Source: Candidatus Omnitrophota bacterium (GTDB lineage Bacteria > Omnitrophota > Gorgyraeia > Duberdicusellales > 4484-171). Taken from it: DNA of 64,000 bases. Numbering within the stretch: position 1 is the stretch's first letter; each line of letters starts with the position of its first letter. The notes beneath the pieces were generated by a model, which was given only the letters and a program-made list of their open reading frames with translations, did no database searches and was not told the origin of the DNA. Positions 9,281 through 41,100 of the stretch are shown here, one piece after another. The stretch covers positions 13,795 through 77,794 of the forward strand of contig JBDRAN010000035.1 in assembly GCA_043823745.1 (NCBI GenBank), read 5' to 3'. Made by a program: the position numbers and the translations under genes.

Positions 9281-9286
9281 ACTAAC

Positions 9287-10095: not shown

Positions 10096-10102
10096 CGCTA
10101 TC

Positions 10103-12935: not shown

Positions 12936-12953
12936 CGCTAACCGCTATCCGCT

Positions 12954-13718: not shown

Positions 13719-13724
13719 TTCTAA

Positions 13725-14513: not shown

Positions 14514-14581
14514 ATACTATTCACCCAGACTTCAGGCTTTACGCTATAAACCTAGAACCTGTAACCTTGAGCCTACACCCC

Positions 14582-15637: not shown

Positions 15638-15639
15638 AA

Positions 15640-15765: not shown

Positions 15766-15780
15766 GTAAGCATTAGCCCC

Positions 15781-17177: not shown

Positions 17178-20100
17178 CTATCGAACAACGGGTCTGGCCG
17201 GCATATCTATGCGATTCCTGAAAACAATGGTATTTTGGCGGATATGCATAGCTCTTCCGTTTGTAAGGGGCATTTCCATTGGTAACAGGGCGCTGCTGGG
17301 GCTTGACGAAGCTCCTCGGTTTTTTTCCAAAGCGTTATGTAACCCTTTTGCTTCCCACGAGATTACTTTATATTCCCATTGCAATTCAATTATCTGCCTT
17401 TTGACCTGTTCATAAGAACTTTGAAGCTGCGGGACTAAGCGGGCCACTTCTTGTTCTATTGCCTTAAGCCGCGCCTCAATCACCTGAATTCGTTTCCGCA
17501 GAGCCTCTTCTGAATCACTCGATAGAGCCGCCCTGCGCATCGTATCTATAAGTATCCGTTCATCGTCTCTTGCCGCAATGTGCGGGTCCTGGTATACTTT
17601 CTCTCTTATTGCAAGCGCTTCTTCAGGCTTGATTCTTAACGGTATGACTCCGTCATCGCCGCTTCTTACCACACCCTTGACCCCTCCCGGTAAAAGTCGA
17701 TAAAACGCAATGGCTCCTTTCGCGTTGCATTCAGCGATAATTTTTCTATCCGTATTTAAAGATTCCCTGAAATTACCTTTCTCGCCAGGAGAAGACAGCC
17801 GGTACAACTCCTGATACTGAGGGATTCTATCAAGCAGCACTACTGTCAGATAAAAACCAACCTCCCGATTACCCCACACAATACCGGCGGCTTTCGCCCC
17901 AATGCGTCTCATAACTTCACTTTCCTCCGGCCCGGGTAAAATTTCTCCCTCGGCCAGCAGTCTACTCTGACCCGTCGCTACCTGTCTATACCTCCAGAGG
18001 ATAAAGGGATGCGAATGGATAATAAACTTGCCATGAGGGACTGGCTTAATTACCTTTATGTCTCTAAACTGAGCTTCTGTCTTTTTCCCTTTATAAAAAA
18101 GTATAGGGTTAAGGGTTGCGTTCCCGGCTACTGCCGCGGTAAAGACTGACTCAATGCTTTCAGTATCAAGCACATCAACGACGGAACCAAGGGCTTGACG
18201 CAATCGCTGATCTTCTCTTAAGAAATATTCAAAATCATTACAATCGCGTAACTTCCAGACTTCAGCCGAGGATGAAGAGACCACGCTTTGAGTACTAAAA
18301 AATGATACGCTCGGTTCTTGCTTCAAGGCCTGCGTATCAGGCACTGAACTGCTTGAACTCGTAGCTGATCCGCTCAAAAACATACGCATAAAGTCCCCCG
18401 CCACTCGAAGATGCCCGTCATCTCCGGCAAATAACCTTACCTGTTCATCGCTTAAAGACTGAAAAATAGCTTTGTCTCTTGTTAAAACAAGGTTCAACAA
18501 ATTTTCAAGCGTTTCGGTTAATTGTAAATCCTTTATCCTTTTTTGTGCGTGCAACAACGAGTATCGATCTCTTCTTACTTTTCCCGCAATAGACGCTAAG
18601 CAATCCCTTATCCACTCAAGGTTACCTCGGAATTTTTTCCGTATCCCGATCGTAACAAAGCAGTTACTCACATAAATACCAACCTCCTGGGCTAGCGCAT
18701 CATCAAGAGCTATTTTTGCTGATAAGAGATTGTCCAAGGGTTCATTACTGTTGAAAGTAGGGCTTGAAACAGCTTTTCTGCTGCTGATATTTTTTGCGCT
18801 GTGAACAAAAGAAACGTCTGGCTGCACTCGTCCGAATCGGTGAGACTGATGGATTATTCCGGCTACGCGTATTTTTTTCTCAGACAAGCTTGGATTCAAC
18901 AAAGTAAATGGTCCATCCGGCAAGCTGTGAAACCAGGTGCGCAATTGATGCTGGTGAGTAACCCCAAGGGCGATTGCTGCTGGTTTTTCGGCACCCGAAG
19001 CTATAATGGTATCGAATATGCCTTCAAGCCTGGAACTCGTATAGTCTTTTGTTTCTCCACCGGCCAACACCTGAAAAGCCCGCCAGGAAATTTCGCTCTG
19101 AGTTATTTTCCAAAGCCTGATCCGTTTTGCCACGGCACCGCCACTGATAGAGTGTGGCCTGCACCAAAGCCCAACTTCCTCTTTACTGAATCGCACTGTA
19201 GCTTTTATCTTAAACAATGCTGACAGGTATGATTGCGCCAGCAGGTCTACGAAACGCTGCTGCCGGAGGTCTCTCCTACTATACGTAACCAAGGCTACAG
19301 AAGAGCTGCCACTCTCACCTTCCGGCGCATTTGGTGAGCTGGCGCGGCCTTGCCCTGAGCCTGTCGAAGGGCCGCCCTTGTCAAGACTTTCCTTATTGGC
19401 TATGGCTTCCCTTATTCGCGTAAAAATATTATCCAAGTTCTTCTGCACTGTATTTCTTAGACGCCAATAGGGGCCACTGGGCGGAACAAAAAACCGGCCT
19501 GCGGTTGGCCGTTCATCTTCATAAACAAACAACTCTTTCTCACCCAAAACAAGATAAACCATATTTGCTGATTTTGGATACTGCTTTACGAAAGCATCCC
19601 TCATCTTTTCTGTCATCACAAAGATAATAACTGCTTCTTCTATTTCTGCGCTGGTAACTTTCCGCTGCTCATGCAAAATTAAAATCGGATCGCTCTGCTT
19701 ATCTACATCTGTACCGGGATCCGAAACAACCTCACACAAGGCCGCTGACCAAACCTCTATTCTGCCTCTCAAATCATCAGGAACCATTGAACACAAGATA
19801 CCCGCCACTATCGGCGAACGCTCTTTATTTTGATTACAAAGAACCAGGACCTTATGCCTCGAGGAATCCTGCGCGCCGCTATCAAGGTTTCTTTCTTCCG
19901 GCGAGGTACGGCCGGCTTTTCTTCCCACATCTCTGGTCCCACACCCTACGCCCTTCGGATTTTCCGCCGGCGAGCTAGCCCGGCCTTTGCTATCAAGGTG
20001 TTCGAGTTGGTTTGGATTTAATTCTTTAAGCTGCCGCCAAAATGTGTATTTGATAAAATGCCAACCCTGCCTGGCATTGCGATAATCATCGTCATTCCTT

Positions 20101-23100
20101 TCTGCATCTTTAAAACATGCGTCGAGTCTAAAATAAACAGCACAGGCTCTACTAAATAATCTGCAAAAAACACCTTTGTCTTTTATTCTTTTTAAAGTAC
20201 TTCCAATACTCTTTTGCAACAAAGGCTCTACAAGCGGTATATACCAGTCAGAAGCTAAGTGTTCTACGCCGCGATCAAGATCAGAAGCCAAATTCTCAAA
20301 CAAGATTATCGCTTCTTCAGCAGCTTTCTGTAAAGCTTTTTCAATATTGGCTTGGGGATTACGAATCCGAACAGCTTCTTCATATTTTTCCTGATACATT
20401 TCTCCAAAAGCAATCGCCCAATCTCTATGGCGGCCAGGATTTAACTCTACTCCTAAATCGTGATAACCCTGTGATACCCTTCTTAATATAGAAGCATTCG
20501 TTGAACTTATTCCGGGTAACTGGGCAAAATTCCAACAGACAACAGCCATTTCTGCCAAATAACCGAGGCGGCGTTCCATGCGAAATTTATCCTTGTGCTG
20601 CTTCGCATACTCAAAACCTTCTTGAGCAAACTCCGGATAACTTTGAGCAGTCTTAGCTTGGGGGTCTGCTGCGGTCATGGCCTCAACAATTACTTCTTCG
20701 GCATACTTTCTCAAACCAACATCAGGCATATAGCCCAGTTTTGAACGGATATATTTATCGTAAGCACCTTGCGATTGCTCTATAGCATAGTGATTTCTTT
20801 CATGGATTCCCAAATGAGTAGCGGCTTTGATTGCAACACCAAGAGAATATCTTCTGTAACCAAAATTTACGGTATAAGTTTTAGAGCCCATATCTTGCCG
20901 GATAAGAAACTTTGCGGAATGGCTATCTATTTCCTCATATCGATAATCAAAAGGAATACCGCCTACAGAGCGAAGAATACTGACGAATTGCTCCTTCTGC
21001 TTCTTTGTCCAGTCCCAAGAGGAAGAGGGGCTTGAGGTTTGGCTTTCGCTACTTACTTTAGAAATAATCGAACGTAGCGTTTCTGCTTCGAATTTTTCCC
21101 TATATCTATGGGCTTCCTCTTCAAGATGTTTCAATTTCTCAGGCATATCGCTCTGTTCAAAAAGGCTTGCTAACTCCCTATATAACTCCTCACTGCCGAC
21201 GAGGAATTTGATGCGATAAAACTTTTTACATTCAAGAAGACTGTTTCTATCCTTCTTGCTCATAAGCTCTTTTATCTGCGACATTGTCATCAAGGTATGT
21301 TCTGTCTCCCTGTCAAAATTGTCGCCGAGCTCTGCTAAGCCTCCCCTGACTGCTCGAGACAATCTATTTATAGTGATTGCTTGGTCACTAAAAGCGACTT
21401 TTTTCCATTCATAATCATCAGCTACAAGGACGACAAGATCTATATCGGAACCTCTAACAATTTCACCCTGTTCATTTATTCTTTCACGGTCATGGGCCAT
21501 ACCATAGGCAACACTTCCAGTCAAAGCAAAGAAACTTTTCTCTTCTATATGCCTTCTCCGATAAGGTGCTGCATTCGCAAGAATTCCATCATAACCTGTT
21601 ACCTTGCTTTCAACAATTGAAGCCAAAAACTCGTTGTAAGATTCTAATTTTGCTTTGTGCCTTGCTAAAGCCTTTTTAAATCGTTCATCGCCTTTTAGTC
21701 CTACCACAATAAAATCCATAAACTCCTGAACAATCGTAGGCTGAATTTGCGGGCCCCTGGTGGTGAATTTGAAATATCGCTCTCCCAGCATGGCTATCTC
21801 TATCTCCGGAGTAGTTTTAGCAACTGCCCAGAGATTCAAAGCCACTAACTCTTCATTTGCCTTATCATTTAAATAAAGAACACTTTTATCTCGGTAATGC
21901 CTAGGCTTGAAACCGGCAATTTCGCTAAAAAGATCCCGGCCCAGAAGCGGCCCGGTTCTTTCAAGAACACCAAGGACTTTCTTACCTAACTTCTTTATAG
22001 CTCTGGCTCTTTCTTGGCTTGATTCGCCTGGCTCCCCCGGTGAGCTGGCCTGGCCTGTGTCCCCCATAAAAGTTCTTCTCACCTGATTCTCATCATAAGG
22101 AAAAAACATTCTATAGCTATCCATCTTCTCCGGCTTAAGGTCTGCACCAAAAAGCGATTCTCCTGATGCCGCAAAGAAATCATCCATTTGAATTGGATTA
22201 GTTGCAAAATACCTTGCTACTTCTTTACCCGCCTGACTCTTTAAATCATCATAGAAATATTTATTAGTTATACCAATAGACTCTAAAAACATACCCACAT
22301 TCCCTGAATCACCCTCAAGATCCCCAAAATCAAAGACATAGATTCTCCCGGTATCCAAATCTACGCCATAATTGCCATAAGGATAAGTAAAATCAAAGTC
22401 CATCACCCCTCTTTTGAACATCGAGATTACAAACTGTTTATAGCTGTCAATGAGACTCTTAGCCTCAGATATCCTTCCCTCTTTGCTCAAATACTTTAGG
22501 CGACTAAAAACTGGTACTACCTTTTTTTGGACAATAGCTAAATCAGTTTTCTTCACGCCACCATATTTTAAAAAATAACTGAACGGTTTCCTTGAGCCGT
22601 CGGTGGCGTTGATAATTATCGTCGGTACAGCAAGGCCGCTTAATCTTTCCTCGGCCAACTTACAGCTTCGCTTTATCCAGAAACGTAAAACATTATCTAT
22701 CTTGTCGGGATATCGGGACTTTTTTACTACAAAATCAAAACCATCTTGTGAATATGCAATGAGATGTCTGCCGACACCGACATGGCGCAGAAGATAACTC
22801 TCCGGAGAAACTTCCGCGGGGGTAATGGGTTGCTTTTGCCGTAACAACCTATCTATTTCCTTAGCTAAAAACTTACCGTCAATGGCTCTGGTTACATCTA
22901 ATCCAAATCTAATAAGAATCTCTCTTCTACCACCTAAGGCCTTTTCTTGCCGTAATTCGGCAATAGCTTTTTCGGGCAAGCCTTGAACTCCCTCTTTAAA
23001 TTGCCTCAATAATTCCCACTTGCTTACACCTGTTCTCTTCTTGCCTTTAGCCGATGGAACGTATTGAATCGAAGGTTTGGGCGGCTCCTTTGGATCGTGG

Positions 23101-26100
23101 TCATCCGTCGGCGAGCTGGCGGCTTCTATCTTACTTGTAACTTTGTGACCTTGTGGCTTGTGACTTGTCAGTGCCGGCGAGCTGGCCCCGTTAGAGATTG
23201 ACGATCCATTACCTTCTGTATCTCTAACGGGGCTGGCTCGGGACTCATCAAGTCTTGTTCGAAGCTTAGCTCCGAACAAGGCGTTCTCTGTGGCAAGGGC
23301 ATAGACCAAGGCTGCTTCTGAAAGAGCTGAGCTGCTCCGGAAAGCAGTTGGCTGATCAGCACCAGTAGGTTGCTGTAAGTAGTAAAACCATGTCTTTCCT
23401 TTTCCGGGAATTTGCAGAGATTGTAATGGGTTGGGTCTTTGCTTGGATAAGTTTATAAGATACTTTCTTGCCGTATTAGGCCTTAAACCACACCTATTTG
23501 CGATTTCGTTTACTGATATAGCTTTATCTGCTGTATCTGGCAGCACTGCCATAATTTGCTGCTCGCTTCTTTGCTTGTCTATCGCTAACTGCTCCTGCCT
23601 AGTTAATTGTGGTTTTCTAACAGCCGCCGGCACTAAGCGTTCCGGTAGCTTAGCTATTAAATCCAGTACTTTTAGTTCATCTGCCCTAAACTGCCCATCC
23701 ACATACAAAACTGGAACTTTTTCTGTTTGGTTCAATAACTTTGCTGTGATTCTAAATGCAGAAGCATCAAAATCTACAATTAATCCGGCTTTAGTTCTAG
23801 AGTCGGCTTGCTTCAGCCTATTGCGCACACCTAAATGAGCTTCCGCAAGCCCAACAGAAGCGGCTATAATAAAAAGGGGTTGAGCAAAACCAACTCTCCT
23901 AAACAAAGCTCTAAAATTATTTTTTATAGCCTTAATATGAGGTGCCTCTTCAAATCGCCCTCCTGCCTGGGTATTTGCTGCTTTAAATTCTTGCAAACCC
24001 CAGATAAGTTGTTCCAAAAATCTTCTCTTCACAATTCGCCAGGCTTCCTCTTTTAACATAAATTTGCCCTGCCTACGACAAGCTAATTTTAATTGCACCC
24101 ACTGTTTTAAATTCTTATCTATAATTTCTCTATTTTCTCCTAAACCATCAGCTAATTGTCTAATTTGGGTGAGATTTTTTGACTCTTCTTTAGATAAAAA
24201 CTGGCCAATTCTCTGCCAGCATTCAGCTTTTCTGGAGAAATCATCAATTTCTTTATCTGTTTTCTGAACAAGCCTGGCATCGACAATAAAAATGGCCTTG
24301 CCTTCTAAGCTTTGTAAATCCTGCCCAATCGTCTTCCCACCATGAACCAGGGACCGTGGCCTACTTGCACCCGCTGAGCTGGCCCGGGGGCCTGGTTTGT
24401 TTTTCCCGCCTTTTTTTCCAGAAGATGAGGTAATCCCTGTGGGGATGTATTTACATCTTTTTATAAATTTTATAGCTTGAGATATACGTAACAACTCTGA
24501 TCCCGCTCGTCTATCTCTTTCTGCATCTGTCAAATGACTATTTAGAATTTCAATAACTGCCCTTCTTATATGATAAAAATTATTATCCATGAACCTGTCT
24601 AAGCTCACTTTTTCTGAGGCAGAAACATCTCGTCCGATTTCCAAACGGCTAAAGTTTCTGAATTCTTTTTTTAAATTAGATAACATCTTCTGTCTTGCTA
24701 AAATATACACAACCCGCATGTGAATCTGGATAGGAAGAAAACCAGTATCAACATCTGCGTCTTCTCTAATGAGTTTTAAAGTTTCTACGCCTACCTTATA
24801 GTGCCTAACCGATTTTTTATGGCTGTCTTCAAGGTCATAGAGACAGGCTATGCGAATATGCAAATTGGCTATATCATTGAGGATGAGCCTCTGTTTAGGA
24901 AAATCTTCCATGGCCATTGGGCTTCTGGCCTTAATTCTTCTTAACTCCCCACCTTTTTTTGCAATTTCTTCCCGAAGGCGCCTCCTTTGCTCTCTTGCCA
25001 AGGCAAGCGTAAACATATCGCTTACAGCCATCATCCGCCTGCATCTTCTATCTATTTTTTCATAAACCCCGAAAGGATCTACCCCCATAGCCCGGCCATG
25101 AGCTTCTTCAACAGCTTCGTAGGTAACCTGCTCGCCTCTTTTAAGAATCTGAGAATACTTTTCTACCTCCATCTGGTCATGATGCAGGACCGTAGCTATA
25201 TATCTAGGATCTTCTACATCCTCCAGGAACCTTGCCGGAATATAAACTATCTTGTTTTCCTTTCCAATGTGGGTTACTTGATAGTAAGTTTGGTCGTTTG
25301 TGTCTTTTCCGTAAAGTAGAAAATGGCTCGGCACATCTACCTCGACTACTGTGGTTTCTTTCTCAAACCTACTGGCCCTTGAAATTATTTCTCTATCCCT
25401 CTTACTCTTCGGCTTAATTTTCTTCAAAGCTTCAGTTGCCTGCCGTATCTTTTCGGCATTTGACGAATTTAAAGCCAGCGGCAAATTTTCCTGCCAAAGC
25501 TTCTTTTCATAGTAACTTCCTTCCTTTATTATCTTTTTGGGAAAAGCCCGGATAATTAAATCCACCTGATGGTGACGCGGAAACACATCTCCTTGCCCAA
25601 AAGAACTGTTGGGAGAATAAAAATCTTGCCAGCGCTCTACGGCGCTTGAACCTTTCTTGCCCACGGAAAGGTGGCCGGGAATAAATTCTTTTATAAAAAA
25701 TGTAAAAAGGCCTTTTTTAGTTAAATAAGCCTTGGGGGAAATTATTTTAGCCTGTTCAAACATCTTTTTAACAAATAACTCAGATACGCATGAATTGTGC
25801 ACAGTCTTAGCCGGAGAGCTGGAAGCAATGCTTTTTATCTTTCTTTTATCAGGCGAGCTGGCGGTAGGATAGCTCATAGTTCGTAACTCATAGCTCCTCG
25901 ATGATAGGTCAGTTAGAGATGACGATCTGGTCCTGAGCTGGCCCTCTCGCCTGTAATGCTGTTCATCGTGAGCAACAGGTGAAGAGCTTTGTCTATCTTG
26001 CCTGTTAACCCTGACTCTAATTATAAAAACTTTTCCTTCTTTAGGGCCGGGTTGGACTGCAATCCTGCTTTTCCCTACAGAGAGGGAAGGACTGTCATCG

Positions 26101-29100
26101 TTTCCATCTAGAATATTAGAAATAACTCTCTCGAACTTAAAAAGAATGATCGGCAGTTTAACAATTCTTTCTCTCTCTCGGTATCGCAATATGATTGTTC
26201 CGTTATCTTGAGGTGTAGCTTCAAACCCATACTCTCTGAATACCCCGTTAAGCTTATCAATAATTTCATAAATAGAACCCGAAACATGAATGCGAATTGT
26301 GCGCTTATTAGGTAAAGTCATTCCGCAAGAATCTGGTAAAATATTAAACATTATCTGACTTGACCTTATGCCATTTTCCGGCGAGCTAGCCCGGCCGCCG
26401 TTGTCGAAGGGACCCTCTTCTGATTGGTGAGATGATGAGCTCAGCGTTGTCTGTAGCAGTTTAAGGTACGCATCGACCTTCCTCAAATAGCCCTCGTCCC
26501 CGAGTAACAATCCCCGCTGAGTCGTTAAAACTCCGGGATGCGTGGAAAGAAAATCTGTAAAATCGGTGTTTGCTCTGATCCAAATACTGACTCTCTCAGC
26601 AATATCCCCAAGGGAGAAATCATCCGATAATGAGTCGAAATAACACCATTTAATGGAAACGGCCATGCTGTCAAATCCATGAATAACGCCCAGTGTTCGT
26701 TGGAGTCGAGTCATGCTAAGGCTCGGCAGGAGGTTCATGGCTTCCTGGGCATAGTTGGTAGCCAAAAATAGGTATACACAGCAGCGGATCTCACGGCTCT
26801 TCTGCTTGCTCCATGAAATAAGTATTCTTTCAAGATCCCGAACATGAAATGTAGCCCCCCAGAGTTTCATCGTCGCATCCATATCTTTAAACCATATCCA
26901 CACATCTCTTAAGGCGCAATAGGCCGAAATGTCATCTATGCCCATAACCGCCGATTTCGCGGTCTTGAGTAATCGTTGAAGAATAGCCAAATTATCCGAA
27001 AAATTCATGAAAGCACTTTGCTCGGGCCTCTTAATCAAAGAATTATCAGCTTGACCCGAATCAACCGATGCTCGCAGGCGAGCTACCTCTTCGCTAAAAT
27101 AATCCAAGCCTTGCGATGACGAGCTGGCGGCTTCTCTCTTACTTGTGACCTTGTGACCTTGTGAGGCCGGCGAGCTGACTCTATGCTTCGTAAAATAATA
27201 CATATCTGTTGCTTTCGGAAATTGCTGATTCCGAGGCAATCCGAATTTTACCATCAGTCCGGCTTGATTTTCCTTTGATACCAACCCTGTTATAATTAAA
27301 GTTCCCGTTTGAATAAGAAGGTCATATAAATTGTCCGCTGCCGGCTCGATATCCATATCGCCACAAAAGACAAGCGCAGAATATATGGTGTCAAACCTAA
27401 GGGCTTTCCAGGACGCGGGAATGTTTTCGATACTTCCTTTTATAAAACGTCCGTCGTTATTATTAAAATTTTCTACGCCATTTCCCATTACCGGCTCTAT
27501 TGCGTGCACTTTTGCCGGATCGAAGCCAAGACGGTTAATCAAAAACAAACCGATTGAACACCGCCCGCCGCATCCTACTTCAAGAAACATCTGTTCTTTC
27601 AAAGTCTTTAACTTCTCCCCTACAACACCCAGCCCCTCATTCCCGACAAGTGCATCCACAAACTTCTTTAAATCCAGACGTTCACCATCGTCGAGCAATG
27701 CGTCCCTTTTTATCGCCGAAAATAATGTAGCAGCCATCACCGAAGGGCTAGGCGAGCTGACTGACACAATCTGCCGTTGCTGCATATCCCTAGCTAACTC
27801 TTGAATAAAAACATCGATCTTTTCTTTGGTAACGTGCTGCATAGCCATGATGTGCACAAAATCTCCATACGGGGCCAGCTGCCATCTATCTATCAACTCT
27901 TGAGAGGGCCTGGCAAATATCACAGTATTGGAAAACTCATTCAGCTCCGAAGGACATCCTATTTTCTGCAGCTTCCGGTAAAGATATTGCGCATTCTCCA
28001 TGCATAAACCCGCTTCTTTCCTGAAGCCTTCATATCCTTTTGTCGTAACAGCGTGCCATAAATAAAATAACACCTGCCCGCTCTGGGCGGTTAATAACTC
28101 TTCTACCTGTCGCATAAAATTTTGGCTAGCGCAGCTTTCGCGAACCATGAATATACCCGAAGGCATCGGCAGCCCCATAAACTTGTGCCCGGATATGGCA
28201 ACACTATGGACGCTTTTGGCTAAGTCTATCTTTGGCGCACCTTCTAAAAACGGCAGCATCATACCGGAAAGAGCGGCGTCACAATGAATATGAAAGTCGG
28301 CAACATGGCATTGGCTTAGAATACCTATTACTCTTTCCGGACTATCTATAGCGCCCCTCATAGTCGTTCCGATATTAAGGTTTAAAATGACCGGCCGACC
28401 GCGATTGGCTTTTATCGCCTTCTCCAATTTGCTATAATCGATCTCACCGTTGGGTAAAGATGGGATCTTTATCGCTATCCTTTCCTCGTTGTATATTGAA
28501 TAATCGGAATCTTCTCGGTATTTAATTATCTGCATATTCAATAGCCTAGCTATCTTGTCTATCGAATAATGCGAATCTTCGCTATAATAAAGTATTCCGG
28601 TGGGCCTGCCGGGGAAGCGTTGTATTCCGGCTAAGATTCCTATCAGATTTCCCCATGTCCCGCCAGCAGTTACTCCACTAAAAACATCCTCATCTTCGAC
28701 ACCGTACAACTTTGTGAAAAAATCAAGCGCCTCCTGTCCAAATGCTTGCGCGTCTTCTTTTCGTAAAATATATTTAAACAGATTCTGCAAGTCGCCATAC
28801 GACTCTTTGCTTGCTGTTATATTCGCGGGAAATCCCAAAAATCTTTCCATCAGCTTTTTCAAGCGTCCTTCAAGTCTATCCAAAGTATCAAGGACTTCCC
28901 GGGAAGGCTGATAGGCGATTTCTTCACTGACCTCAATATCGCCGGGAGTCAATACCCCCTGCTGTAAGGTACCACCCAAATGGTCTTTCAATAAATCGTT
29001 CACAAATTCCGCTATCTCTATGTTTGTCAAATAAGGTATGGCCTCGAAGCATGATTCCCGACCGTAAGATAAAAGCCCCCACTTTCTACGCACCTCAAAG

Positions 29101-32100
29101 GAAGGCTGTTTGAAAATTAGGGTCTGGCGATCACCAAGCCTACAAGGATACCCTTTGCTGCTAAGCGTTTTATTAATGTAGGCTGAAACCTCTATTGCCC
29201 GCCTGGCTCTAAGCTTAAATCCTGGGCTTCCCATAACTTTTACCGCCAACCAGAGATAGAGGGGAACGTGTCCACTGCGTGATCCGGGAATGGTCGTGTC
29301 TTCAGCATTAACATATTCTACCCTGTCCCGGCCGCTTGAAATATTACCCACATATTCCTTTTTCGTCAAGGCAATCGCTCCGAGAACCGACAACCCCATA
29401 AAACTGCCCAACGGCAAGGCCATGCTGTCCACACCGTGTTCAAAATCTATCTTTGAATTGCCTCCCAGAAAGGACTCGCCTATGCTTAACGGCGACATGT
29501 TGTAATGGATATGCTTTTGTTTTACGCCGGCACAACCCAGGATACCCTTGACCTTGCCTAAATCGTCTACAGCACCCAATAGCCTTCCGGCATTAAGACA
29601 CACTATGGCCGGGCCGCCGTTCTGCCCTACTTTTTCCTTTAGGTCGGCGTAATCAATTTCTCCGCTTGGCGAGGACTTGATAATCTTTATCCTGTTCTCC
29701 TTTACGCCTAATATCTGCAGCGCGTAGTAAAGAAGGCCGTCAACATGATTGGATAGATAATAGATCGCGTTCCTGGAAAACCGGCTGCGAGCGATAAGCA
29801 TCGCATAAAGTTCGGCCTGCTGCCTGTTGATAGTCACATGGCCGCCGTATCCCTCGGAAATTTTAAAATGCCCGGCCCAGAACTCCAGGAGCTCACGCTC
29901 CTGTTCTTTTGTATTATTCCTTACATAGGTTTCGTCATCCGGCTCGCCCAAGTTATTTAACTGATACTGATAAAAACGGGTTAGGATATCATAAAGCGGA
30001 TTCGCCTTCGGGGCGCTGTCTCCAATCCTTCTCTCAAACTCTTGTAGCCTTCTGGCTATTTGGCCGGAATCTACGGGGCTCAACCTGACGCCGTTGTCGG
30101 CGCTGGCGCCCGGTGAGCTTGACGATTGTCTTTCTATCTGTGTGTCAATTTGCTGCGCCAGCCTCTTAACATCCTGCGCAATAGTTGAAATATTAACTTC
30201 TAAAACTGCTATCTCAAACTCTCCCTCTAAATCGAGTTTTGCCTGACTGCTCCAGTCCCTTGCGCTTACATCCCGGCCTTCGGCTCTATGGTGTTCGATA
30301 AATTTCCTTATTTGTTCTAGATTCCTAACTTCATAAATTGCCTCTACATAGTGAAAACTTAAAGGAAGGCTTGCTTCATCATCCTCTGGAGATATTGAAG
30401 GATCGTGCCCAGCATAGAGCTCACACTCATCTTTTTCCTTAGCCACATATCCCATCAGTTGGTCGTCTGCTATCGCTTCCCATTTTCCTGTAGCAATTAA
30501 GGCCTTTTTCAATGTACTTTTTCCAGCGCTCGATAATCCTGTCAACAATATTACTTTTCCAGAACTCTTACTCCTTATTAAAACCCCAAAAATGTCAAAG
30601 GGAAGGTCTGAGGAAAGGCGTTGTAGTTGCTTTTTAGCTAACTCATCATTTCTTTTGTCTGCCTCGGATAATGCTGTTTCCAGGTTAAATATTAAATGCC
30701 CTCTTCTATCTGTTACGTTAAATCTCTTATCTATGTGCGTTATATATCTATACAATGTATTAAGACGTTCGATTGTAGCTATTCTATGCCTCGGTGCTGC
30801 GGGACTTGAGGCTCCCCTTGATAAAACAACAGGTTTACGAAGGTTTAAATCTTTAATAAAAATAACTCGGGTACCGCTTTTAACGGGGGTATCTTCATAA
30901 TGCCGCTCCTTCTCGAAGTCTTTTTCCCAATGCCGGGCTTGAGATCTTCCGGCTATATTTGTAACGGTGGTAATCAGAATATGGTCAGAATTATTTACCA
31001 TTATCGTCAGGCCGGTTCCCTCATGGCCCGACTGCCTAAAAGACTTTCTGGGCAAAATAGCTATATGTAGAGGGGCCAACTCCTGGTAGTCGTCAATAAA
31101 ACCATCGCCGCGATCAAGAAGAACAAAGGTAAAACGAACTTTACTTTTACCTATAGTTTGAATCCTTAACAGTAAGGCTCCGATATCTCCGGCCATTAAA
31201 TTCCTGGCATGCTGCCAAATGTTTTCTACGGCTTTGCCGACAGCGTTTAGCACTTCATCGTACTCATCGGCATTAAACAGGTTTTTGTTCTTTCCCAGAA
31301 AAGACCTCGCAAAGGAGTTTAGCTCACGAGTCTTGCCAACGATGATTTCCTGCAAATCTTGAGGAAATTCACAATAAAAATCTGACTGTAGTTCACTGAT
31401 AGTTTTCGCGCGAACTCCCCTGGCGGCAAGCATATCCACCCATAACCGATTGATGTGGCTGTAGCCCTCTTCATCTAGAAAGGGTAAACCGGCAGAGGGT
31501 TGATTTTTCCCGCCTGGGCGATGGGAAAGGGTTTTATCTGAAGCCGGCGAGCTGGCCCGGCCGCCGTCATTGTCGAGAGAAGCCGGTGGATTGCCTAAGT
31601 TGGATTCATTCTGTAACATGGTAAGTGCCTTAAAATACTGCAGGGCGGTACCACCCCCCTTTGCAGTATCAGCTTTAAGATAGGCTGCAGTCTTTTGTGA
31701 TGCCTTAGGCAGCCATTGATCAATAGTTTCAGCCTTAACATACCATGAAGACGGAACTTCATCCTCGAATCCTAAACAATCATATTCATCGGCTCCTAAG
31801 CCTTTTTCGCTAAGTTCTCGATAGGCTCCTGGCAGAGATAAAACAATTGCAAAACCTTCATTGGAGAGCATATATATTGTCCAAGCAAGAAGGGTTTGGG
31901 CTGAACCTCGGATAGCTTTAGAGATAGTCGTACCAAGGCCGATATCGTTCGGAAAATGTTTAAACATCTCATTTACTGGAGCATTCTGCCAATAACAGAG
32001 AATGGCCTGTTGCTTGCCGCTCGAATTCGAGAAAAGCACTTCGATAACCGCCTCCACTCCCAGAATCTCCAGCTCGTTAATATTTGTAATCTCGCGGGGA

Positions 32101-35100
32101 TCCTCTTTTACGCTTAAGGCTAAGAAGAGCTCCCGCCCCTGAGACTGTTCTTCTGCTAATGCTTTAGCTGTTGCATTCACCTGGTGCATATGGGTGGCTA
32201 ACCTTGAACAAACTGTCGTTCCTTCCAAACCTTGCCATACTTTGCTATGGCCTTTTATCGAATCAAAATCGTTACGCCAGAGGGTAAAAACATTTTGTAC
32301 GGCCTTTCGTTGCCGTCGCGAAAGCTCACTCATTCGCACAGCTAAAAGCAGGCGCGTCTGTTTTCCGGTTAAAGAATATTCATGTACGATAAGAGTATTG
32401 CTAAAGGAGGGGGCAATGAACTGGTTAACGATCGGGCTTGTGACAGGTACCGGTGAAGAGGAAGTGTCGCCGTTATCTAGGGAGCACGGCGAGCTGGCCC
32501 GTATTAGTCTATAGTCCATAGTCGATAGTCCATAGTCAGGGGAGATTAAAATAAAGGCGGGCAAGAGCAAGATTCCTTCGCCCGGGCGTCTGGATATCAG
32601 GGAAATTCTCTTGTGATAATTTCCCTGAAACGCCACGGGCATAGCCACTGCGTGGCTAGGTGGGGCTTTGTTGGACAAGCTGCTGAAGAAATCGTATTGG
32701 GTATTGGGTATTGGGTATTGGGTAAAAAATGGGTAAACGGCTGCGGCAGGTCGACCAGATCCCACCAGCCACGGAGAGGTAAACTGGTCTATAAAACCCT
32801 GCCGCAACCGAATATCTGCTTCTTGCTTATTTGCTTCTCTGCTTCTTGCTTTTGAGGCCGGGGAGCTGGCGCCTTTCCCTGGTCTTGGGCATTGAGATCC
32901 AGCCTCGGTCGTAGTATTCCTGACTTGGGTAGAAGTGAAAAATTCTTTGCCAAAAACTCTTTCACCCTCCTTTTGTAACCTCGCCAAATCCTGCTGAGAT
33001 TTCCTTAAGCGCTCAAGTAGCTCTACGGGAATTCCTGTAGGGAAATTTATACTGAAACTTGAGGCGCCTGTTTTCTCCGACGGGCTGGAGGCCCGAAGGG
33101 CCGACATCCCCGCAGGGGGGCTGGCCTCTTTTTGTCGGTCGTCGTTCATAGGTGGTCTATCTCCAGGAACAAAATCATAATCCGGACTGACCCAAGCTTT
33201 GCCGCCGGAAGCAACATCAATGCTAAGCTTCCTGCCACAAATCGTGCCGCCGGTACAGCGACTATCGACAGATAAGCCGTTACTGCGCAAAAAAGAAACA
33301 ATCTTTCGGGCGTAGGCTTGACCGCAAGCAGAATGTCCGCCGGCGACGGAGGCGATTATCCTATCCTTATTCGCTCCCAATTGTTCAAAAACTTCCAGCA
33401 CCGCCGAAAGAGTTTCTTTGGGCCAATCAGACTCTATAGCAGAAATCTTGTTACGTTTAGGGCCATCTTCGTTATTAAAAAAATGGCTTAAGAAAAATGC
33501 TTTCATTCCATTACTAAGAGAAGCGCTAAAAGTTACGCCAACACAGTTTACAAGGTTAGCGGTTAATAACTTCCTCACCTTGGCCTGAGAGGGAACGCCG
33601 ACAAAAATAACTGCTGTACGGAAATAAACAAAAAATGCACCTTCTCTTTTGGTGTATAGATAATACTCTCTTTCAGCCTGGCGAAAGCGGGAGTTTTTCA
33701 CTGAAAGATTATGAAAAACTAAAATATTGCCGCCAGCATCTTGCAGGCCTTCAATTCTTTTTTGCGGCTCAGCTAGCATTTCAAAAAGAACACTTTTTTG
33801 CGGCGAGCTGGCGTGGAACTTTGGCTGTGGTCTATTACTTTCAAGATGCGAAACTATTCCTTCATGCCTATCATACAAACGTATTGTAATTTCGGGGCGA
33901 TCATACACAATCCCGGATGTATTAGGATGCTGCGTATCATTTATAAAAAATCCAAAGGTGCGCTTTTTATCTTCAAGGAATGAATGTATTTCCCGAAGCA
34001 TCGACTGTCCATCACGCGAACCGGCCTTTTTGGCGACTAAATCGATGGGTATCAGTATTTCTAATTTATGCGCAAAATCCACGATACCTTGCAATACCAT
34101 GCGGACACAGGCCTCCCACCACCACCCATAAAGCACTACCCTAACATGTTCTGTGCGTGGTTTGTGATAACTAACATAAAACCGAGTTGCGTCAACAATG
34201 GCACCAATGTGATCTCGAGGCGGCACAGATAACACAGTATAGCCAAGACCTTTCATGCATAAGGAAAACTCTTCGTTCTCTTTTGCGTGCACTGGAACAA
34301 CTACTACTTTTATACTGTCCGCTGAGCTGGCCCTCTTCGGGTCGTGTGTATTGCGTGGTGCGTATTGCGATGATTTAAACTCTCCACTGGTGACTGGTGA
34401 CTGGTGACCTGGTAACTTTTTTAGCGCCGGTGAGCTGACCACTTGTTCGTCGTGGGTCTTGAGTATTGGGTATTGTGTTGAATCGACTTCTTCACTGGTG
34501 ACTTTGTGACTTTGTGACGTGTGACCTTGTGAGGCCGGCGAGCTGGCGGAATCCGTTTTGTTACTTTGGGAAAACGGTGGGACGCGGGTTGGAAAATTTT
34601 TGCTACTTTTCGTATTGGAAATTTGAGACCTTGATGATACCTGGCTGATTATTCTTTCAGCTGTTGAAAACGGTAAGGTGCATTCTTTAGCAATAACCGC
34701 AGGCTGTAATATCCCATCTCTGGCCAGTTTATTTTGAATATAATCCTCTATTTGAGCACAAGTCATAAGCCGGCCCTTCTCCGGTGATGCCGCGTAAAAA
34801 TCATAGTGAGATATCCCTTCTTTATCTAAAACCGGCTCCCAGTCTAACCCCAGTAATCGTAAACCCTTAAACAGTAGCCCAATATAGTGATTTCCTATTA
34901 TATGCTCTGCTTGGTATATATACATCACGGAATCGCCTCTAATGCGCCTCAAGGTAAAATTCGAAAGGTCTGGCATCCTAAAACTCTGATAATAAGGATT
35001 ATCCCGGGGAAAATTGTCAGGGTCTAATTGCCATATTCCACGCCCTCTTCGTATAATAAGATAACGGATGAGACCGGGATGGTTGGTCATCCGGGCATGG

Positions 35101-38100
35101 ATAAAAACTTCTCCCTTGACAACATCGTGTACATAACGCCGGTCAACGGCATGAGTAACGGGAACTATTCGCACTCCTTTTACATAGGAAAGCACTTCGC
35201 TCAATTCAAAGTCACCCTTTTCTACTGCCTCCTTTCGTAAGTCCTCTAAAAGATAATCAGCTCTTTCCTGAGAGGACTTATCAAAGTAAGGCTTTCTATA
35301 TTGAGAAAATGAGTGTGCTAATCTTGCTATCCTCTCTGATTTCTGAAATAGTAGACTGGAAAACATAGAGAAATAATGCCCTGTGAGGTATATAATATTC
35401 AAGGAAAGGGGTAGAAAAAATAATATTGCCACCATAGTATTCTCTAAAGGTAATAAGGAAAAAACTATGTAATAAATAGATACAAATCCTATTATTTTAT
35501 AAAAAACGAGAAAGGGCTTATAAAAAATGCTGCGCGGCTGCTTCGTATATTCATATTTCCGGAAAACATCTTTCATCAAAATCAGGTGCCAATCAAAGAT
35601 CAGCGGCAGACGCAATACGGAAAGAAGCGTATAAAAATATACACCGAATGATGACCGCGCTCTTGATAGCTCCGTGGCGTTTAAATTAACAACCCTGCTC
35701 CCCTGCGGCCGATGCGCGCGGACGGAAGAAGGAGATGAGCTTCTCCGAAAAGCAGTTGACTGGCCAGCGCCAGTAGGTTGCTCTAAATAGTAAAACCACG
35801 TCTTTCCTTTTCCGGAAACTTGCAGAGATTGTAATGGATTAGGCCTTCGCCCCAATAAGCGCTCAAGACACTTTCTTACCATACCAGAACTTAAGCCACA
35901 CCTATCTACGATTTCGCTTACTGACATAGCTCTATCTGCTGTATCGGACAGCACGGCCATAATTTGTTGCTCGGTTGACTGTTTGTTTCTCGCCAACTGC
36001 TCCTGCCTCATTAATCTTGGTTTTCGAACAGCCAGAGGCGTTAAGCTTTCCGGAAACTTAGCTATTAAATCCAATGTTTTTAGCTCAGCTGCCCCAAGTT
36101 GCCCATCAATATATAAAACAGGAACTTTTTCTGTTTGGCCAAATAATTTTACTGTGGTTCTAAACATAGAGGCATCGAAATTTACAATCAATCCTGCTTT
36201 AATCCCAGAGTCAGCTTGCTCCAGCCTATTGCGCACACATAGATGAGCCTCAGCGATCCCAACCGCAGCGGCCACAATAAAAAGAGGTTGAGCAAAACCA
36301 GCGCGCCTAAACAGAGCTTTAAAATTATTTTTTATAGCCTTAATATGGGCAGGCTCTTCAGATCGCCCCCTTCTCTGGGCCTTTGCCGCCTTTAATTCCT
36401 GCAAGCCCCAGATAAATTGTTCCAACAATCTTCTCTGCATAATTCGCCAGGCTTCCTCTTTTAACATAAATGTACCCTGCCTGTGACAAGCTAATTTTAA
36501 TCGCACCCATTCTTTTAAATCATTATCTATAATTTCTATATTTTCCCCTACATTATCAGCGAATTGTCTAATTTGGGCGAGAGTCTTTGGCCCTTGAGCT
36601 AAGAACCGGCTGATTTTCTGCCAGCGGTCAGCTTTTCTGGAGAAAGCATTCATTTCTTTATCTGTTTTTTGAACAAGCCTGGCATCAACAATGAAAATAG
36701 CCTTGCCTTTTAAGCTTTGTAAGCGCTGTACAATCATGTTCCTGCTATAACCCACACCCGAGGAACCGGCGGGAACGGGGGAACCGGCAACTGCACCTTC
36801 AACATCAGAAATAAATCTCTTTATAGATTCAGCATCGTCAGCATAACTTTTACCATTAAAGTTCTCACGCACTATGCCAATAACATAACCATTTTCATTC
36901 ACAACTGGTGCGCCGCTAAAACCAGGAGGCACCATAGTATCAATTTCAATAACCCCGCTTCTGAATATTCTTTTAGCTTTTGCGAAAATTATCTCGTTAT
37001 TGCCATTGTTACCCTTGTCTTGCCTGCCTAGAATAAATACATCTACCCCTTGTTTTTGGTCTAATCTCGGAAAATTCCGACGCGAATATCGTATGAATTT
37101 GGCCAACGGCTCTATTTTCTTCTTTTTTAAACCTTTATTTGTTAACCTAACAAGACCCTTATCAGATATTAGCACTGGAGGCTTTTGCAATCTTCTTCTT
37201 GAGCACCTGGAATAAAACCGAGAGCTTGAAAGGGTACCAAAACTTCCTTCCAAGTTGATATAGTCCGGTTGATTGTCAAATGCGTGCCCTGCGGTAACAA
37301 CATAATAATTATCGCTGCATTCGTTCCAAATAATACCGGAACAGCTATAAAAATGGTGCCTATACCCTGCCCTTCGGCGTGGCTTTACCACAACAAATAA
37401 TCTAAATATTGCCTCTAACCTTTCACGCGGTATGTTTGGAAATCTAGCTAATATGAAAGACATCAATAACTGTTCATTGACTTGTCCCGCTGAGCTGGCC
37501 TTACCTTCTCCCTCTGCGGCCTGCCGCAAATCACCGGATTCAAGCCTCCCAGCGAGTTTTCTAAGGTGCGCGTCCCTTATTTCCCGGGCAGCCGGGATGA
37601 GTCGGCTTAGATCCTCCCTGTTTAAAGCTCGGGCAATCCAAGCTAAATCGTGCTGGCTTATGTCCCGGCTCGAGGCCGCTAAAATCAGGATTTCTTCTTT
37701 TCTCCGCAGGGCTTCCTGCAAGCCCTTCATTTCCTGGAAAGAAGCTCTGGCTTCGATACAATTATAGTCGGACCATTTTCTTTCACCGGGATTTTCGTAT
37801 CTGGCCACATGGCCTATCATTTCATGAAGCACTATATCGAATAAATATGCCGGCAAACGGAACTCATCTTCCGCAATCATTATGATGTAATTCATTACCC
37901 CGGAAACTTTGCAGCTAAGGATTATCGCCCCCTTCTGTTTTGAATAAGAACTATCATGTTTGGGTATATATCCCAAAGTTTCCAAAGCAGAAGCCAATGC
38001 CTGTCTATTTGCGGTGACCACGGTCTGAATCCTCCTCTTTTTAACAAGCGTAAGCAGCAAAGAGTAATCCTGGGGTGATATGGCTTTAAGGATTCCCATA

Positions 38101-41100
38101 CTTAAGGCGATACTCCGCATCTCCTTATCCGTTACCGGCCTTACCTGCCTGCGGACTTCCCTGGGCATTATTGACATTGACAGGTAACGCCCCCCTAATC
38201 TATCCAGCTTTGAGTCCAGAAAACGCTGAGAACCTGAAGACGACGAGCTGACGGAGGAAGATGTAACTCCTAACTGTTTTAAAATCTTCTGAGCCCCCTC
38301 ATCGCCTCTCTTTGCATCTTCTTGTAAAATTTTAATAGTTTTCTCACTCGCCTTCCTCAAATAAAATTCACTCTCAGCGGGTCGCAATAATCCTGTTTTT
38401 AACTCTTCGCGTCTAAGAATGATAATCATTTTTAAATTTGAACGGATAGCAATATTCTTATTACGTGTAATATTTATTACATAACGGAGAAGTTGCCGGC
38501 CGGCACCGATAAAGAAACTATTCTTATCTTGCTTGTTGCTGGGTCTCTTTTCCAACCAAACGAGCGCATCTGTTCCATCTTTTTGCTCTTCTATTACAAT
38601 AAAACTCTCTACGGATAGTTGAGGCTCATAGCTATTCTTGCTAAAAGAAAAATATATGCGCCTTAGCGGTCTTACTTGTTGAAAATATTGCTTATAGTCA
38701 GTCCGTCTTAAACAACGGGCAACATCAGCAAGCAGTAGCGAATTCTCTGGTCCAATATCACTGACTTGATATTCTGGCCAATATTTTTCAAACTCCGCGA
38801 TAACACCCTGTCGTTCTTTTTCAGAGAGCTCTGATACTTCCCGAACCGGTAAGATCTTTTGACCGGGAACGCCTCTAAACACAAGATTCTCCTTCACGAT
38901 AATGCCTCTCTTTAAAATCTGATTATCGTATATGTTTATTCTTTCAGCCGGCGAGCTGGCCACTTGTTTTTTAAAAACCTTCGCAATAGATTCTGCTTCG
39001 GCGCTTACCTCTTGCCAAGATGTATTGCTTGTAACCGGAATTAAGATAATAAAAATCGAAGGATGCCTGGCGCGAGTTAAAATATTAGAGACGAGTGGCG
39101 GTGATTTAATAAATGAAAAATCCCTATGCCTCCTTTTACCCCCGATAAATTCATCAGCAATGGTTTTATTTTCAGAAGAAAGATCATCATAATCTAAGTT
39201 AAGCTGAGCATATTTTTTCTCTCTAGCTTCAGCTATATCCTTAACGTTTGATTCATAACCAGGACTATAAAGCCTGTCGAAAAACGACATAATCCCTAAT
39301 AGATTCTTTATATTCGCCGAAGAATATGTAGTACGTATCCGCTTTCTAAAAAAGATTTTAACTGCCGCCCGCAAAGGTAATTCAATGTTTTTATCAATAT
39401 CCCCTTCATCTTGAAAAGTTAACGCCGGCGATACCCAAATAGGTTCTATATGCATAAGCGAATCTCTAGGTGCAGTCTCTTTCATCTTTCGTATATCGTC
39501 GTTCGTATATCGTTTATCGTTTGTCGGGGAGCCAGCAGCTTCTCTCCCACTTGTGACTTTGTGACCTGGTGACTGGTGACTTTGTGAAGCTGGCGAGCTG
39601 GCGGAACTTGATTGTTCAAAAATAGCAAGATGGTGTAGTTTAAGGTATAAATCTATTGTATCTTTTGTTAACTGTTGCGGTTTAATAAGGCCTTCGAGGC
39701 TAGTTTGTTCCAATAAATCCAGAAAATCCCAAATAAAAACATCCATTTTCTCTAAAAGAACTGTTGCGTTTCCCTGTTGGCCGAATCCTCCTTCTAAATA
39801 ATCACCCACTGCTCTTTGAAGTTGAGGAATATAGGCAGCTAACACTGCCGGACATCTTCCTGATAAAGTATTTCGAATTGATCCCGCCAACCTAACCACT
39901 ATTTTCTTTTGACTCGGAAAAAAATCACCAAGATCTCTTGCGGCTGCACGAATTAAGCTTTCTATTCCCCTTCGGATATCATCCTTTGCTAAAACCTCTT
40001 CTTCAGAAAAAACATCTGCTGACAGCATTTGAAGGCTTCGAGAATCATCCATTAATTCTAATACATCGATGATGCCTTTACCGGCAGCCATTCGTACGAG
40101 CGGATTATAATCGCTTTTTATTAAGGTTTCAGAAAGATTACCAAGAAGAAGATACCTAATTGCTGGTTGTTCGATAGCTGCTAAATGCTTAGCAACTAAC
40201 TCAATCAAGGCAAACTCTAATGACCACTCACCATGTTGCAGGGCTGCATTTAAAGTGCCTAGAAGAGGGTTGATAAATTCAGACTCAGAGGCCAAGCCCG
40301 TGCTGGAAATTCTGTATGCGGCAATTGCTCGAAATCTATAATCTAAATCAGGCGAAATCATTTTACCAATCAATTGCTCTAGCGGCGCAGGACTTGACAC
40401 TTTGCCATTTTCTTCAGTACCCCCTACATCAGGATAATCGAAGTTTACCTCACCGGCTTCTTCACAAAACCTTTTAACCTGCTCAATAGTGTGTATTATC
40501 TGACTCTCTCCGGGGCTTGAAGATCCCGCCGGCGAGTTAGCCCTACTCCGCCCTTGAGACTCACCAGTCTTTTCTCCTTCTGCACCGGAAGTAGAAACAG
40601 TTTGTACATAGCGTTTCAGAAACCTCCTCACAAGAAGAAGGCCTTTCTTATTGATACGATACACCGCTAAGTTACCCCTTTTCTGCATTGTAGTCACATA
40701 TCGCCTGCTGCGGGCAACGTTGATGAGGCTGCGAACATTCCAATGTCTACCTTTGAAGATGTCTGCATGGGCAATATCATCATAGGTGCATCTTTCCCGC
40801 AGCGATGAGTCAGCCGCAACACAAAAAACAAGTATGTGATAACCGGCAAAACCTCTCGGCTCTGGATAGTGTTCAGCACTGTAATAGTCCCATATTTTTG
40901 TCAAGTCGCCGCCAAACTCTTCACTTACTATTCTGTCTATTTCTTCCTTTAGTGTTTGAACATTCGGTGAACTTACCCGTCTCCCCGGTGAGCTGGCCTT
41001 ATCGTTGTGGACGGTATTACGCCGTACGCCCGGCGTGTTGAGTCGTGAGCCTTGCGAGGAAACCTTCCTGATCTTTGACAGTATTCTTCCTATAAGATCC

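Follow-up and report, generated by a model that had tools for sequence, protein, structure and literature searches.

The P-protein (GcvP/GLDC) is said, in work by Nakai in 2005 and Hasse in 2013, to be built from two homologous halves with one active site per pseudo-dimer. In serine palmitoyltransferase (SPT), one of the paralogues LCB1 and LCB2 lacks the lysine, a single active site lies at their interface, and natural LCB2-LCB1 fusions exist. In the trypanosomatid AdoMetDC-prozyme and DHS pairs, the live enzyme is active only with its catalytically dead paralogue. Within the P-protein the N-terminal half is lysine-less and the C-terminal half carries pyridoxal 5′-phosphate (PLP), the halves occur as split alpha and beta subunits in some prokaryotes, and the protein is regarded as an unusual exception among fold-type I PLP enzymes, the others being alpha2 homodimers (PMC7259800). 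The LCB1/LCB2 heterodimer of SPT is noted in a passage of PMC3794620. Here we describe a 64,000-nucleotide stretch of DNA from a Candidatus Omnitrophota bacterium (contig JBDRAN010000035.1, positions 13,795 to 77,794; hereafter the window), in which one giant open reading frame (ORF) encodes two decarboxylase-like copies, A and B, arranged head to tail with A at the N-terminal side. The two copies probably form an intramolecular pseudo-homodimer of a group II PLP decarboxylase of the histidine decarboxylase/serine decarboxylase (HDC/SDC) type, with one composite active site. The features that define the pair are as follows.

17178..63959, minus strand: giant ORF of 15,593 amino acids (aa) that harbours the decarboxylase pair (ORF list and translation).
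27759..30116, minus strand: A+B tandem module, aa 11282-12067, with the tripeptide SSP at aa 11281 and 12068 and none between A and B (SSP count, BLAST).
28956..30062, minus strand: copy A, HDC/SDC-like pseudo-half, aa 11300-11668 (BLASTP, profile and residue alignment).
27774..28904, minus strand: copy B, predicted PLP-binding half, aa 11686-12062 (Pfam PF00282, PDB sequence search).
28905..28976, minus strand: A-B linker GGTLQQGVLTPGDIEVSEEIAYQP, poorly conserved (29-41% aa identity, and the substitution ratio given below).

Copies A and B share 34% identity over 243 aa (BLASTP, E=1e-31). A preliminary description of the window had reported tandem HDC-like PLP domains at this position; its coordinates were right to within ~60 bases, and the pairwise alignment that it had named as a check found the upstream region to be homologous rather than unrelated. 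It had also read an S-x-H-K motif in the downstream copy and the loss of the PLP lysine in the upstream copy, and the translation bears out both, with SVAISGHKFMGLPMPSG in copy B (Lys at 28182-28184) and, at the aligned place in copy A, SMALPLGSFMGLSV with Ser for Lys. The best solved relative in a PDB sequence search was the Photobacterium histidine decarboxylase 7ERV for copy A (1e-37) and the Arabidopsis serine decarboxylase (AtSerDC) 8JG7 for copy B (1.9e-72). Pfam PF00282 (Pyridoxal_deC) recognises copy B (71.9 bits vs a cut-off of 27) and misses copy A (13 bits). The NCBIfam model NF002748 scored 179.3 bits for copy A and 297.7 bits for copy B, both below the 305 bits at which it assigns histidine decarboxylase equivalogs. 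On these matches both copies are members of the short HDC/SDC branch within the fold-type I group II decarboxylases.

The structure of AtSerDC (8JG7) assigns the residues around PLP to the two subunits of the dimer. Those provided in cis are His201 (stacking), Asp282 (to N1), Ala284, Thr252 (to O3), His313, Lys314 and the phosphate-binding Gly174/Thr175; those provided in trans by the adjacent subunit are Ser352* and the catalytic loop 328-341 with the proton donor Tyr341*, and the substitution Y341F inactivates the enzyme (PMC11407765). In plant aromatic amino-acid decarboxylases the loop Tyr acts in trans on the His of the partner (10.1101/404970). We rebuilt the AtSerDC numbering from the PDB-search alignment and aligned all copies to the family hidden Markov model, which located the following motifs.

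29913..29960, minus strand: copy A NNLGEP loop (LNNLGEPDDETYVRNN), matching the family motif NNxGDP and deleted in copy B (alignment).
29811..29837, minus strand: copy A degenerate phosphate-binding motif, VTINRQQAE for GGTxGN, with Gly174/Thr175 lost (alignment).
29484..29513, minus strand: copy A degenerate HxDAA motif, HIHYNMSPLS, with Asp282 replaced by Asn and Ala284 by Ser (alignment).
29385..29426, minus strand: copy A degenerate S-x-H-K motif, the segment quoted above, aa 11512-11525, with Ser at the Lys position (29403-29405; alignment).
29268..29321, minus strand: copy A catalytic loop VEYVNAEDTTIPGSRSGH (alignment to AtSerDC).
28818..28838, minus strand: copy B LGFPANI, the YPX substrate-specificity motif with X=Ala (alignment; role of the motif from PMC11407765).
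28749..28775, minus strand: copy B site of an 11-residue deletion (KYILR|KEDA), where the NNxGDP loop is gone (alignment).
28647..28670, minus strand: copy B TAGGTWGN, with the phosphate-binding Gly-Thr (alignment).
28563..28583, minus strand: copy B SEDSHYS, with the PLP-ring-stacking His (alignment).
28263..28292, minus strand: copy B HIHCDAALSG, whose Asp pairs with the pyridine N of PLP (alignment).
28155..28205, minus strand: copy B S-x-H-K segment, aa 11919-11935, with the Schiff-base Lys11926 (alignment).
28074..28127, minus strand: copy B degenerate short catalytic loop SQNFMRQVEELLTAQSGQ, with no Tyr and with Ser-Arg replaced by Ala-Gln (alignment).

The two copies have lost complementary sets of residues. 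In copy A the phosphate-binding Gly-Thr has become Arg-Gln, the stacking His is Asp, the Thr falls in a gap, the Asp is Asn, the Ala is Ser and His-Lys is Gly-Ser, while the trans stretch VEY...GSRSGH is intact; Tyr11549 (29313-29315) aligns with Tyr341 of AtSerDC, and Ser11560 (29280-29282) and the following Arg align with Ser352/Arg353. Copy B keeps every cis residue, and its trans positions are occupied by Asn, Ala and Gln in a loop that is shorter by 8-10 residues. The loss is thus reciprocal, copy A being without all cis residues and copy B without its own trans residues. Because the trans residues that B has lost are those that A keeps, copy B is not self-sufficient and both halves would be needed for a single site. 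Each A+B pair holds at most one complete site and does not fit the symmetric two-site homodimer of group II decarboxylases. The NNxGDP loop, present in A and deleted in B, is one that we take to be equivalent to the region of DDC around Ile101′/Phe103′, lining the substrate pocket of the partner.

An exhaustive search of representative proteins returned 1,850 relatives at E<=0.001, and the best 150 of these were checked for two HDC-like domains, which were present in 7. The 7 include P0001, a fragment of the same gene, and P0008, which is distinct; with P0003 added, there are five other tandem proteins. P0002 (923 aa) and P0003 (1213 aa, from an Omnitrophota metagenome-assembled genome) are 65-69% identical to the window, and P0005 (1028 aa), P0006 (759 aa, from a TARA ocean contig) and P0007 (762 aa, from sea-louse data) are 30-40% identical. 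Scanning metagenomes with close alignment added three new tandem loci, L007, L008 and L009, the last two near-identical, and the same kind of scan of GTDB loci gave no contig beyond one already known. Word-indexed protein searches were poorly sensitive and returned very few relatives, whether the query was the tandem, a profile of six tandem sequences or copy A on its own; the distant tandems P0005-P0007 surfaced only in the exhaustive search of representatives. One candidate, P0008 from the alga Picocystis, was excluded as a family member, both of its copies being intact. No split form with separate A-like and B-like proteins was found, the sole search aimed at one being insensitive (it missed known tandems) and returning only canonical single-domain enzymes.

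Residues were compared across nine tandems at 30-69% identity, namely six tandem proteins (the window and the P-series) and the loci L007-L009. Homologues, other large proteins among them, therefore do keep both copies, a point that had been proposed for checking at the outset. In all nine, copy A has lost every cis residue and kept Ser-Arg, and copy B has kept all cis residues and lost Tyr and Arg. The loop Tyr is retained in copy A of eight of the nine (Val in P0007), and the Ser column of copy B is replaced in eight of nine, a Ser being aligned in P0005. The same columns are near-invariant in 110 single-domain relatives (Lys in 109, Asp in 110, His in 109, Tyr in 96, Ser in 106 and Arg in 108), so the reciprocal pattern is not the product of drift.

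Selection was compared among the window, P0002 and P0003, which are 68-72% identical, by the Nei-Gojobori method; synonymous divergence (dS) is saturated at this distance, so the values are rough. Amino-acid identity in this set is 68-70% for copy A and 68-72% for copy B, and the ratio of nonsynonymous to synonymous divergence (dN/dS) is 0.10-0.15 for copy A, 0.09-0.12 for copy B and 0.28-0.53 for the 17-residue linker. Both halves are under equal purifying selection and the linker is relaxed. A rough neighbour-joining tree places all A copies in a single clade and five of the six B copies in a second; the B copy of P0007 lies elsewhere, on a long branch. Since A copies and most B copies each cluster in this way, the tree indicates that the tandem probably goes back to a single old duplication, before the divergence of the tandem lineages. 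A recent tandem duplication is ruled out by the 34% identity between the copies and by the monophyly of the A copies across lineages.

AlphaFold2 was run on the 780-residue A+B pair with a 51-sequence alignment. The prediction, which the preliminary description had suggested as a check, is a single-body model with a mean pLDDT of 92.4 and a pTM of 0.92; over two halves of 380 residues such a pTM argues for a confident fixed arrangement of A and B. The main dip in confidence is at model residues 241-260 (pLDDT 68-77), the catalytic loop of copy A, as expected for a mobile element. A second feature concerns copy B alone, where a 19-residue insertion, IIKYREDSDYSIYNEERIA (aa 11811-11829, window 28473-28529), is missing from P0002 and P0003 and the predicted confidence falls to 76. 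Foldseek searches of the PDB with single halves found 8JG7, 8JIK and 7ERV (TMq 0.42-0.44, TMt 0.80-0.86). The whole model matched the P-proteins 4LHD, 9UZ6 and 6I35 over ~915 columns (TMq 0.66-0.67, 12-14% identity). The model places A and B in an arrangement resembling that of a fold-type I dimer, with the dead half N-terminal and the live half C-terminal as in the P-protein.

Compared with the P-protein, the pair has the same architecture by domain order and in the predicted model: one chain and two homologous fold-type I halves that form a pseudo-dimer, the N-terminal half lysine-less and the C-terminal half lysine-bearing. The sequence families are nevertheless unrelated, the pair is shorter (~780 aa vs ~950), and no lipoyl-H-protein partner is implied for it. 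No GDC-P match was found in Pfam at E<=1, and no P-protein was among the PDB sequence matches. H-, T- and L-proteins are not evident among the Pfam matches of the giant ORF, although no search for a glycine-cleavage context was made. Because both halves are HDC/SDC-like and 34% identical to each other, the duplication was independent of that in the P-protein. The pair would be functionally like the P-protein yet is not a member of its family, and is a separate, parallel invention. With AtSerDC, CsAlaDC (8JIK) and the Photobacterium HDC the pair shares family, fold and the same cis and trans residues, here spread over two copies, whereas each chain of those enzymes carries both residue sets and their symmetric homodimer has two sites. 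The pair is a member of the group II decarboxylase superfamily but would break its symmetric-homodimer rule. SPT resembles the pair in being a fold-type I pair with one lysine-less paralogue and a single interface site, but it belongs to the alpha-oxoamine synthase subfamily, its partners are usually separate chains, and it is membrane bound. The prozyme and DHS systems differ in fold and cofactor (pyruvoyl or NAD) and in using separate subunits, and their dead partner activates rather than splitting the site. The literature, of which our coverage is incomplete, yielded no account of reciprocal loss in a tandem group II decarboxylase and nothing relevant on a pseudo-enzyme of this group.

Substrate preference was considered from the YPX position. 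In the plant enzymes X=Tyr specifies Ser and X=Phe specifies Ala, AtSerDC Y111A abolishes serine activity, and both SerDC and AlaDC carry a C-terminal Cys3His zinc finger (PMC11407765). Copy B reads F-P-A and the tandem homologues F-P-A or F-P-V, so that Ala takes the place of Tyr or Phe and the plant SerDC/AlaDC signature is missing; across the family this position is highly variable. The zinc finger is also absent, since the tail of copy B (...ELARDMQQRQIVSVSSP) has no Cys.

A model that accounts for these data begins with an ancestral homodimeric HDC/SDC-like decarboxylase that would have been duplicated in tandem. Ordinary family members comprise two identical chains and two sites, each site drawing its PLP anchors from one chain and, from the other, a mobile loop with the proton-donating Tyr and a phosphate-binding Ser-Arg. 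After duplication, one of the two symmetric sites would have decayed on both contributing sides, in the pocket of A and in the loop of B. The remaining site would hold PLP on Lys11926 of B, with Tyr11549 as proton donor and Ser11560 as phosphate contact coming from A; the pocket kept by B (Lys11926, Asp, the stacking His, Gly-Thr and Thr) would thereby be completed by the Tyr11549, Ser11560-Arg and NNLGEP loop of A. We infer decarboxylase chemistry, one PLP per chain and a rationale for portability: the fused protein may bind a single PLP and decarboxylate an amino acid without a second molecule, and the built-in partner could allow it to be carried, as a cassette, into giant multi-enzyme proteins. 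This may be why the tandem version is found in very large proteins, no second chain being needed.

The distribution of the pair bears on its portability. The tripeptide SSP, usually within (R/G)ASSP, occurs 56 times in the giant protein, where 4.7 occurrences would be expected and 200 shuffles gave at most 13; the median spacing is 212 residues. Sites at aa 11051, 11281, 12068, 12262 and 12525 (window 30809, 30119, 27758, 27176 and 26387) coincide with module boundaries, and SSP looks like an inter-module linker or processing site. By these boundaries the pair is flanked by two separate modules.

30120..30806, minus strand: P-loop (Walker A) kinase-like module, aa 11052-11280 (Pfam, SSP boundaries).
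27177..27755, minus strand: class I SAM methyltransferase-like module, aa 12069-12261 (Pfam, SSP boundaries).

The kinase-like module has the Walker A motif LLTGLSSAGKST and a Pfam CPT match of 24 bits vs a cut-off of 22; the methyltransferase-like module has the motif LEVGCGG and a Methyltransf_11 match of 21.0 bits vs 21.2. Both scores are weak, and PDB sequence searches with either module returned marginal matches only. The region shared with homologues is confined by BLAST to aa 11292-12064, and to aa 11305-12063 for L007-L009. The pair occurs in stand-alone proteins of 759-1213 aa, including P0002 and P0003, whose N- and C-terminal extensions differ, inside ORFs of 4,670 aa (L007, 2909-16921) and 4,365 aa (L008, 3779-16876), and, in L009, in an open frame of ~3,620 codons that ends at the contig edge. 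The L007 and L008 proteins also contain a PALP domain (fold-type II PLP), with PRK and GNAT domains in L007 only, and no second segment of either protein matches the giant ORF. The A+B pair moves as one cassette, and since it recurs with unrelated flanks, the kinase-like and methyltransferase-like neighbours are not conserved partners. The preliminary description had taken the pair, with its adjoining methyltransferase and P-loop kinase, for an amine-producing or amine-modifying sub-unit. Both neighbouring modules are present, if weakly supported as domains, but, given the unrelated flanks elsewhere and the SSP linkers on both sides of the pair, the sub-unit is not supported. As a separate observation, L007 and L008 each carry several amino-acid-chemistry modules on one chain.

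Several points weigh against the composite-site model. Decarboxylase activity and PLP binding are predicted properties of the pair, and intermolecular B-B′ pairing between two giant proteins may occur. The A-to-B trans geometry, with the A tyrosine reaching the B lysine, is a predicted one. Only six sequences cover the copy A half of the AlphaFold2 alignment, and the whole-model match to the P-protein, at an rmsd of ~7 Å, is supportive rather than decisive. The trans role given to the NNxGDP loop is a putative one, carried over from DDC. In P0007, Val replaces the loop Tyr, so some lineages may have a different chemistry. Because copy B falls just below the HDC cut-off and carries Ala at the YPX position, a change that in AtSerDC abolishes activity on serine, it would be unsafe to take either His or Ser as the substrate.

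Among the alternatives, the composite site could be real but catalyse another reaction, such as decarboxylation-dependent oxidative deamination or another PLP reaction, or it could act on amino acids that are bound in the peptides or cell walls of prey cells. Plant aromatic amino-acid decarboxylases become aldehyde synthases when the loop Tyr is substituted (10.1101/404970), and the Val of P0007, the Ala of YPX, the signal-peptide-like starts of stand-alone homologues and the proposal in the giant-gene literature that Omnitrophota giant proteins are effectors all leave room for it. We nonetheless consider it unlikely, because eight of the nine tandems, the window among them, have an intact Tyr and partner His, as in canonical decarboxylases.

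Copy A might instead be a purely regulatory or scaffolding pseudoenzyme, in the manner of the AdoMetDC prozyme or antizyme inhibitor, that gives no catalytic residues. This was the view of the preliminary description, which saw an intact enzyme beside a pseudo-enzyme; pseudoenzyme partners are common, and what remains of the pocket of A might bind a ligand, as suggested for the N-terminal half of GLDC (PMC7259800). The pairing of an intact with a lysine-less copy holds, but A is not merely a regulatory dead partner: the residues conserved in A are those that are catalytic in trans, Tyr and Ser-Arg, and B, having lost its own, is not self-sufficient. A regulatory role on these terms is rather improbable.

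More doubtful still is a three-step route to an amine running through the kinase, the decarboxylase pair and the methyltransferase of the giant protein, for example from serine through ethanolamine and phosphoethanolamine to phosphocholine. The modules do stand in the order kinase, decarboxylase, methyltransferase, and the best solved relative of B is a plant serine decarboxylase. This adjacency is peculiar to the present gene, the flanks of the homologues being unrelated; YPX is Ala, and AtSerDC Y111A loses serine activity; the kinase is of the P-loop type with matches at the level of Walker A only, and the methyltransferase match is borderline. The serine-to-phosphocholine route was rejected as a candidate, with its unconserved adjacency, its Ala at YPX and a kinase of the wrong fold.

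That copy A is a functionless relic, with B acting alone or as a B-B′ homodimer between molecules, is very improbable indeed: A does score under the Pfam threshold (13 bits) and has no PLP-anchoring residue, but it is as conserved as B (dN/dS 0.10-0.15), its trans residues vary little or not at all across the nine tandems (30-69% identity), and a B-B′ dimer would have no catalytic Tyr or Arg in either site and no Ser save in one lineage, when Y341F inactivates AtSerDC.

A more far-reaching version of the composite-site model would make the pair a mobile, pre-fused cassette shuffled among Omnitrophota giants, where a tethered chain cannot depend on pairing with a second copy, and would have its amine fed to the flanking kinase-like and methyltransferase-like modules. 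We regard this combination as unlikely; if it were true, the cassette and its flanks would together make a small-molecule amine, such as a phospho- or methyl-amine head group, in assembly-line fashion on one chain of 15 kaa. The composite-site model itself would offer a clean natural case of reciprocal loss following the duplication and fusion of a homodimeric enzyme, in an experimentally tractable system of ~87 kDa for studying how asymmetry evolves from symmetric dimers, and it suggests a route by which enzymes that require a dimer could be built into giant single-chain proteins. Pfam does not see the pseudo-half, so present domain catalogues of giant proteins count too few of these architectures, and tandem proteins of this kind are annotated plainly as 'histidine decarboxylase'. 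Omnitrophota is a phylum known for giant genes, and a PLP decarboxylase domain goes unmentioned in both papers on them (10.1101/2023.11.21.568195; 10.64898/2026.06.07.730766).

Among the stand-alone tandem proteins, the N-termini of P0002, P0003 and P0005 (loci L002, L001 and L005) look like signal peptides or membrane anchors (e.g. MKKIISVLMVTALLWQGNVYASS). Such N-termini would be unusual for a PLP enzyme, and this hints that the stand-alone tandems may be exported. At L002 an upstream gene (1231-5664) for a protein of 1,477 aa that contains an intein-splicing domain runs 23 bases into the start of P0002 (5642-8413). A hydrophobic segment comes after an internal Met in P0002, which may therefore start elsewhere or be linked to the ORF upstream. 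P0006 lies on L004, a TARA marine contig on which none of six fully called neighbour genes has a recorded Pfam match. P0007 is recorded from sea-louse transcriptome and genome data (eukprot Caligus rogercresseyi; NCBI QQP56517.1, partial).

The giant gene itself probably runs past the window end and exceeds 15,593 aa. The called ORF is 46.8 kb long, and no in-frame stop was found in positions 63960-64000, the 41 bases 5′ of its GTG start. Residues 1-91 (63687-63959) are 54% identical to aa 13083-13173 (24441-24713), an internal copy that has more ORF before it; the greater length is suggested by this match together with the lack of an upstream stop. The NCBI partial proteins P0001 and P0004 ('Candidatus Omnitrophica bacterium') match stretches of the ORF at 99.8-100% identity. 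Pfam also recognises in the ORF a full glutamate dehydrogenase, an M23 peptidase, a GT1 glycosyltransferase, MraZ, HATPase_c, a trypsin-like peptidase and a transglutaminase core. The complete Glu/Leu/Phe/Val dehydrogenase lies at aa 2607-2986 (window 55000-56140, approximately; Pfam, 227 bits + 139 bits) and the MraZ domain at aa ~4172-4224; both are usually oligomeric stand-alone proteins and are here embedded in the giant protein.

Other internal similarities were found between aa 9061-9413 (35721-36779) and aa 13189-13549 (23313-24395), at 69% identity, and between aa 6066-6216 (45312-45764) and aa 7635-7785 (40605-41057), at 50% identity. These large paralogous segments are segmental duplications within the giant gene. 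A simple Kyte-Doolittle scan found strongly hydrophobic, transmembrane-like stretches only at aa 9482-9528 (35376-35516) and aa 8678-8696, both mid-protein and ~1,800 aa upstream of the decarboxylase pair. Downstream of the giant gene (475-16749, minus strand), every sizeable gene shares the strand of the giant gene; judged by eye, these genes are housekeeping-like and include a ClpC-like ATPase, McsB/McsA-like proteins, a branched-chain aminotransferase, LolDE-like proteins, lysyl-tRNA synthetase and components of an oligopeptide ABC transporter. The peptide (Q/P)GHKVTS occurs four times in the giant ORF (43710-43727, 39549-39566, 27141-27158 and 23133-23150), in three of the four cases ~10 residues or less behind an SSP linker, for example in the context 'SSPASQGHKVTSKREAASS'.

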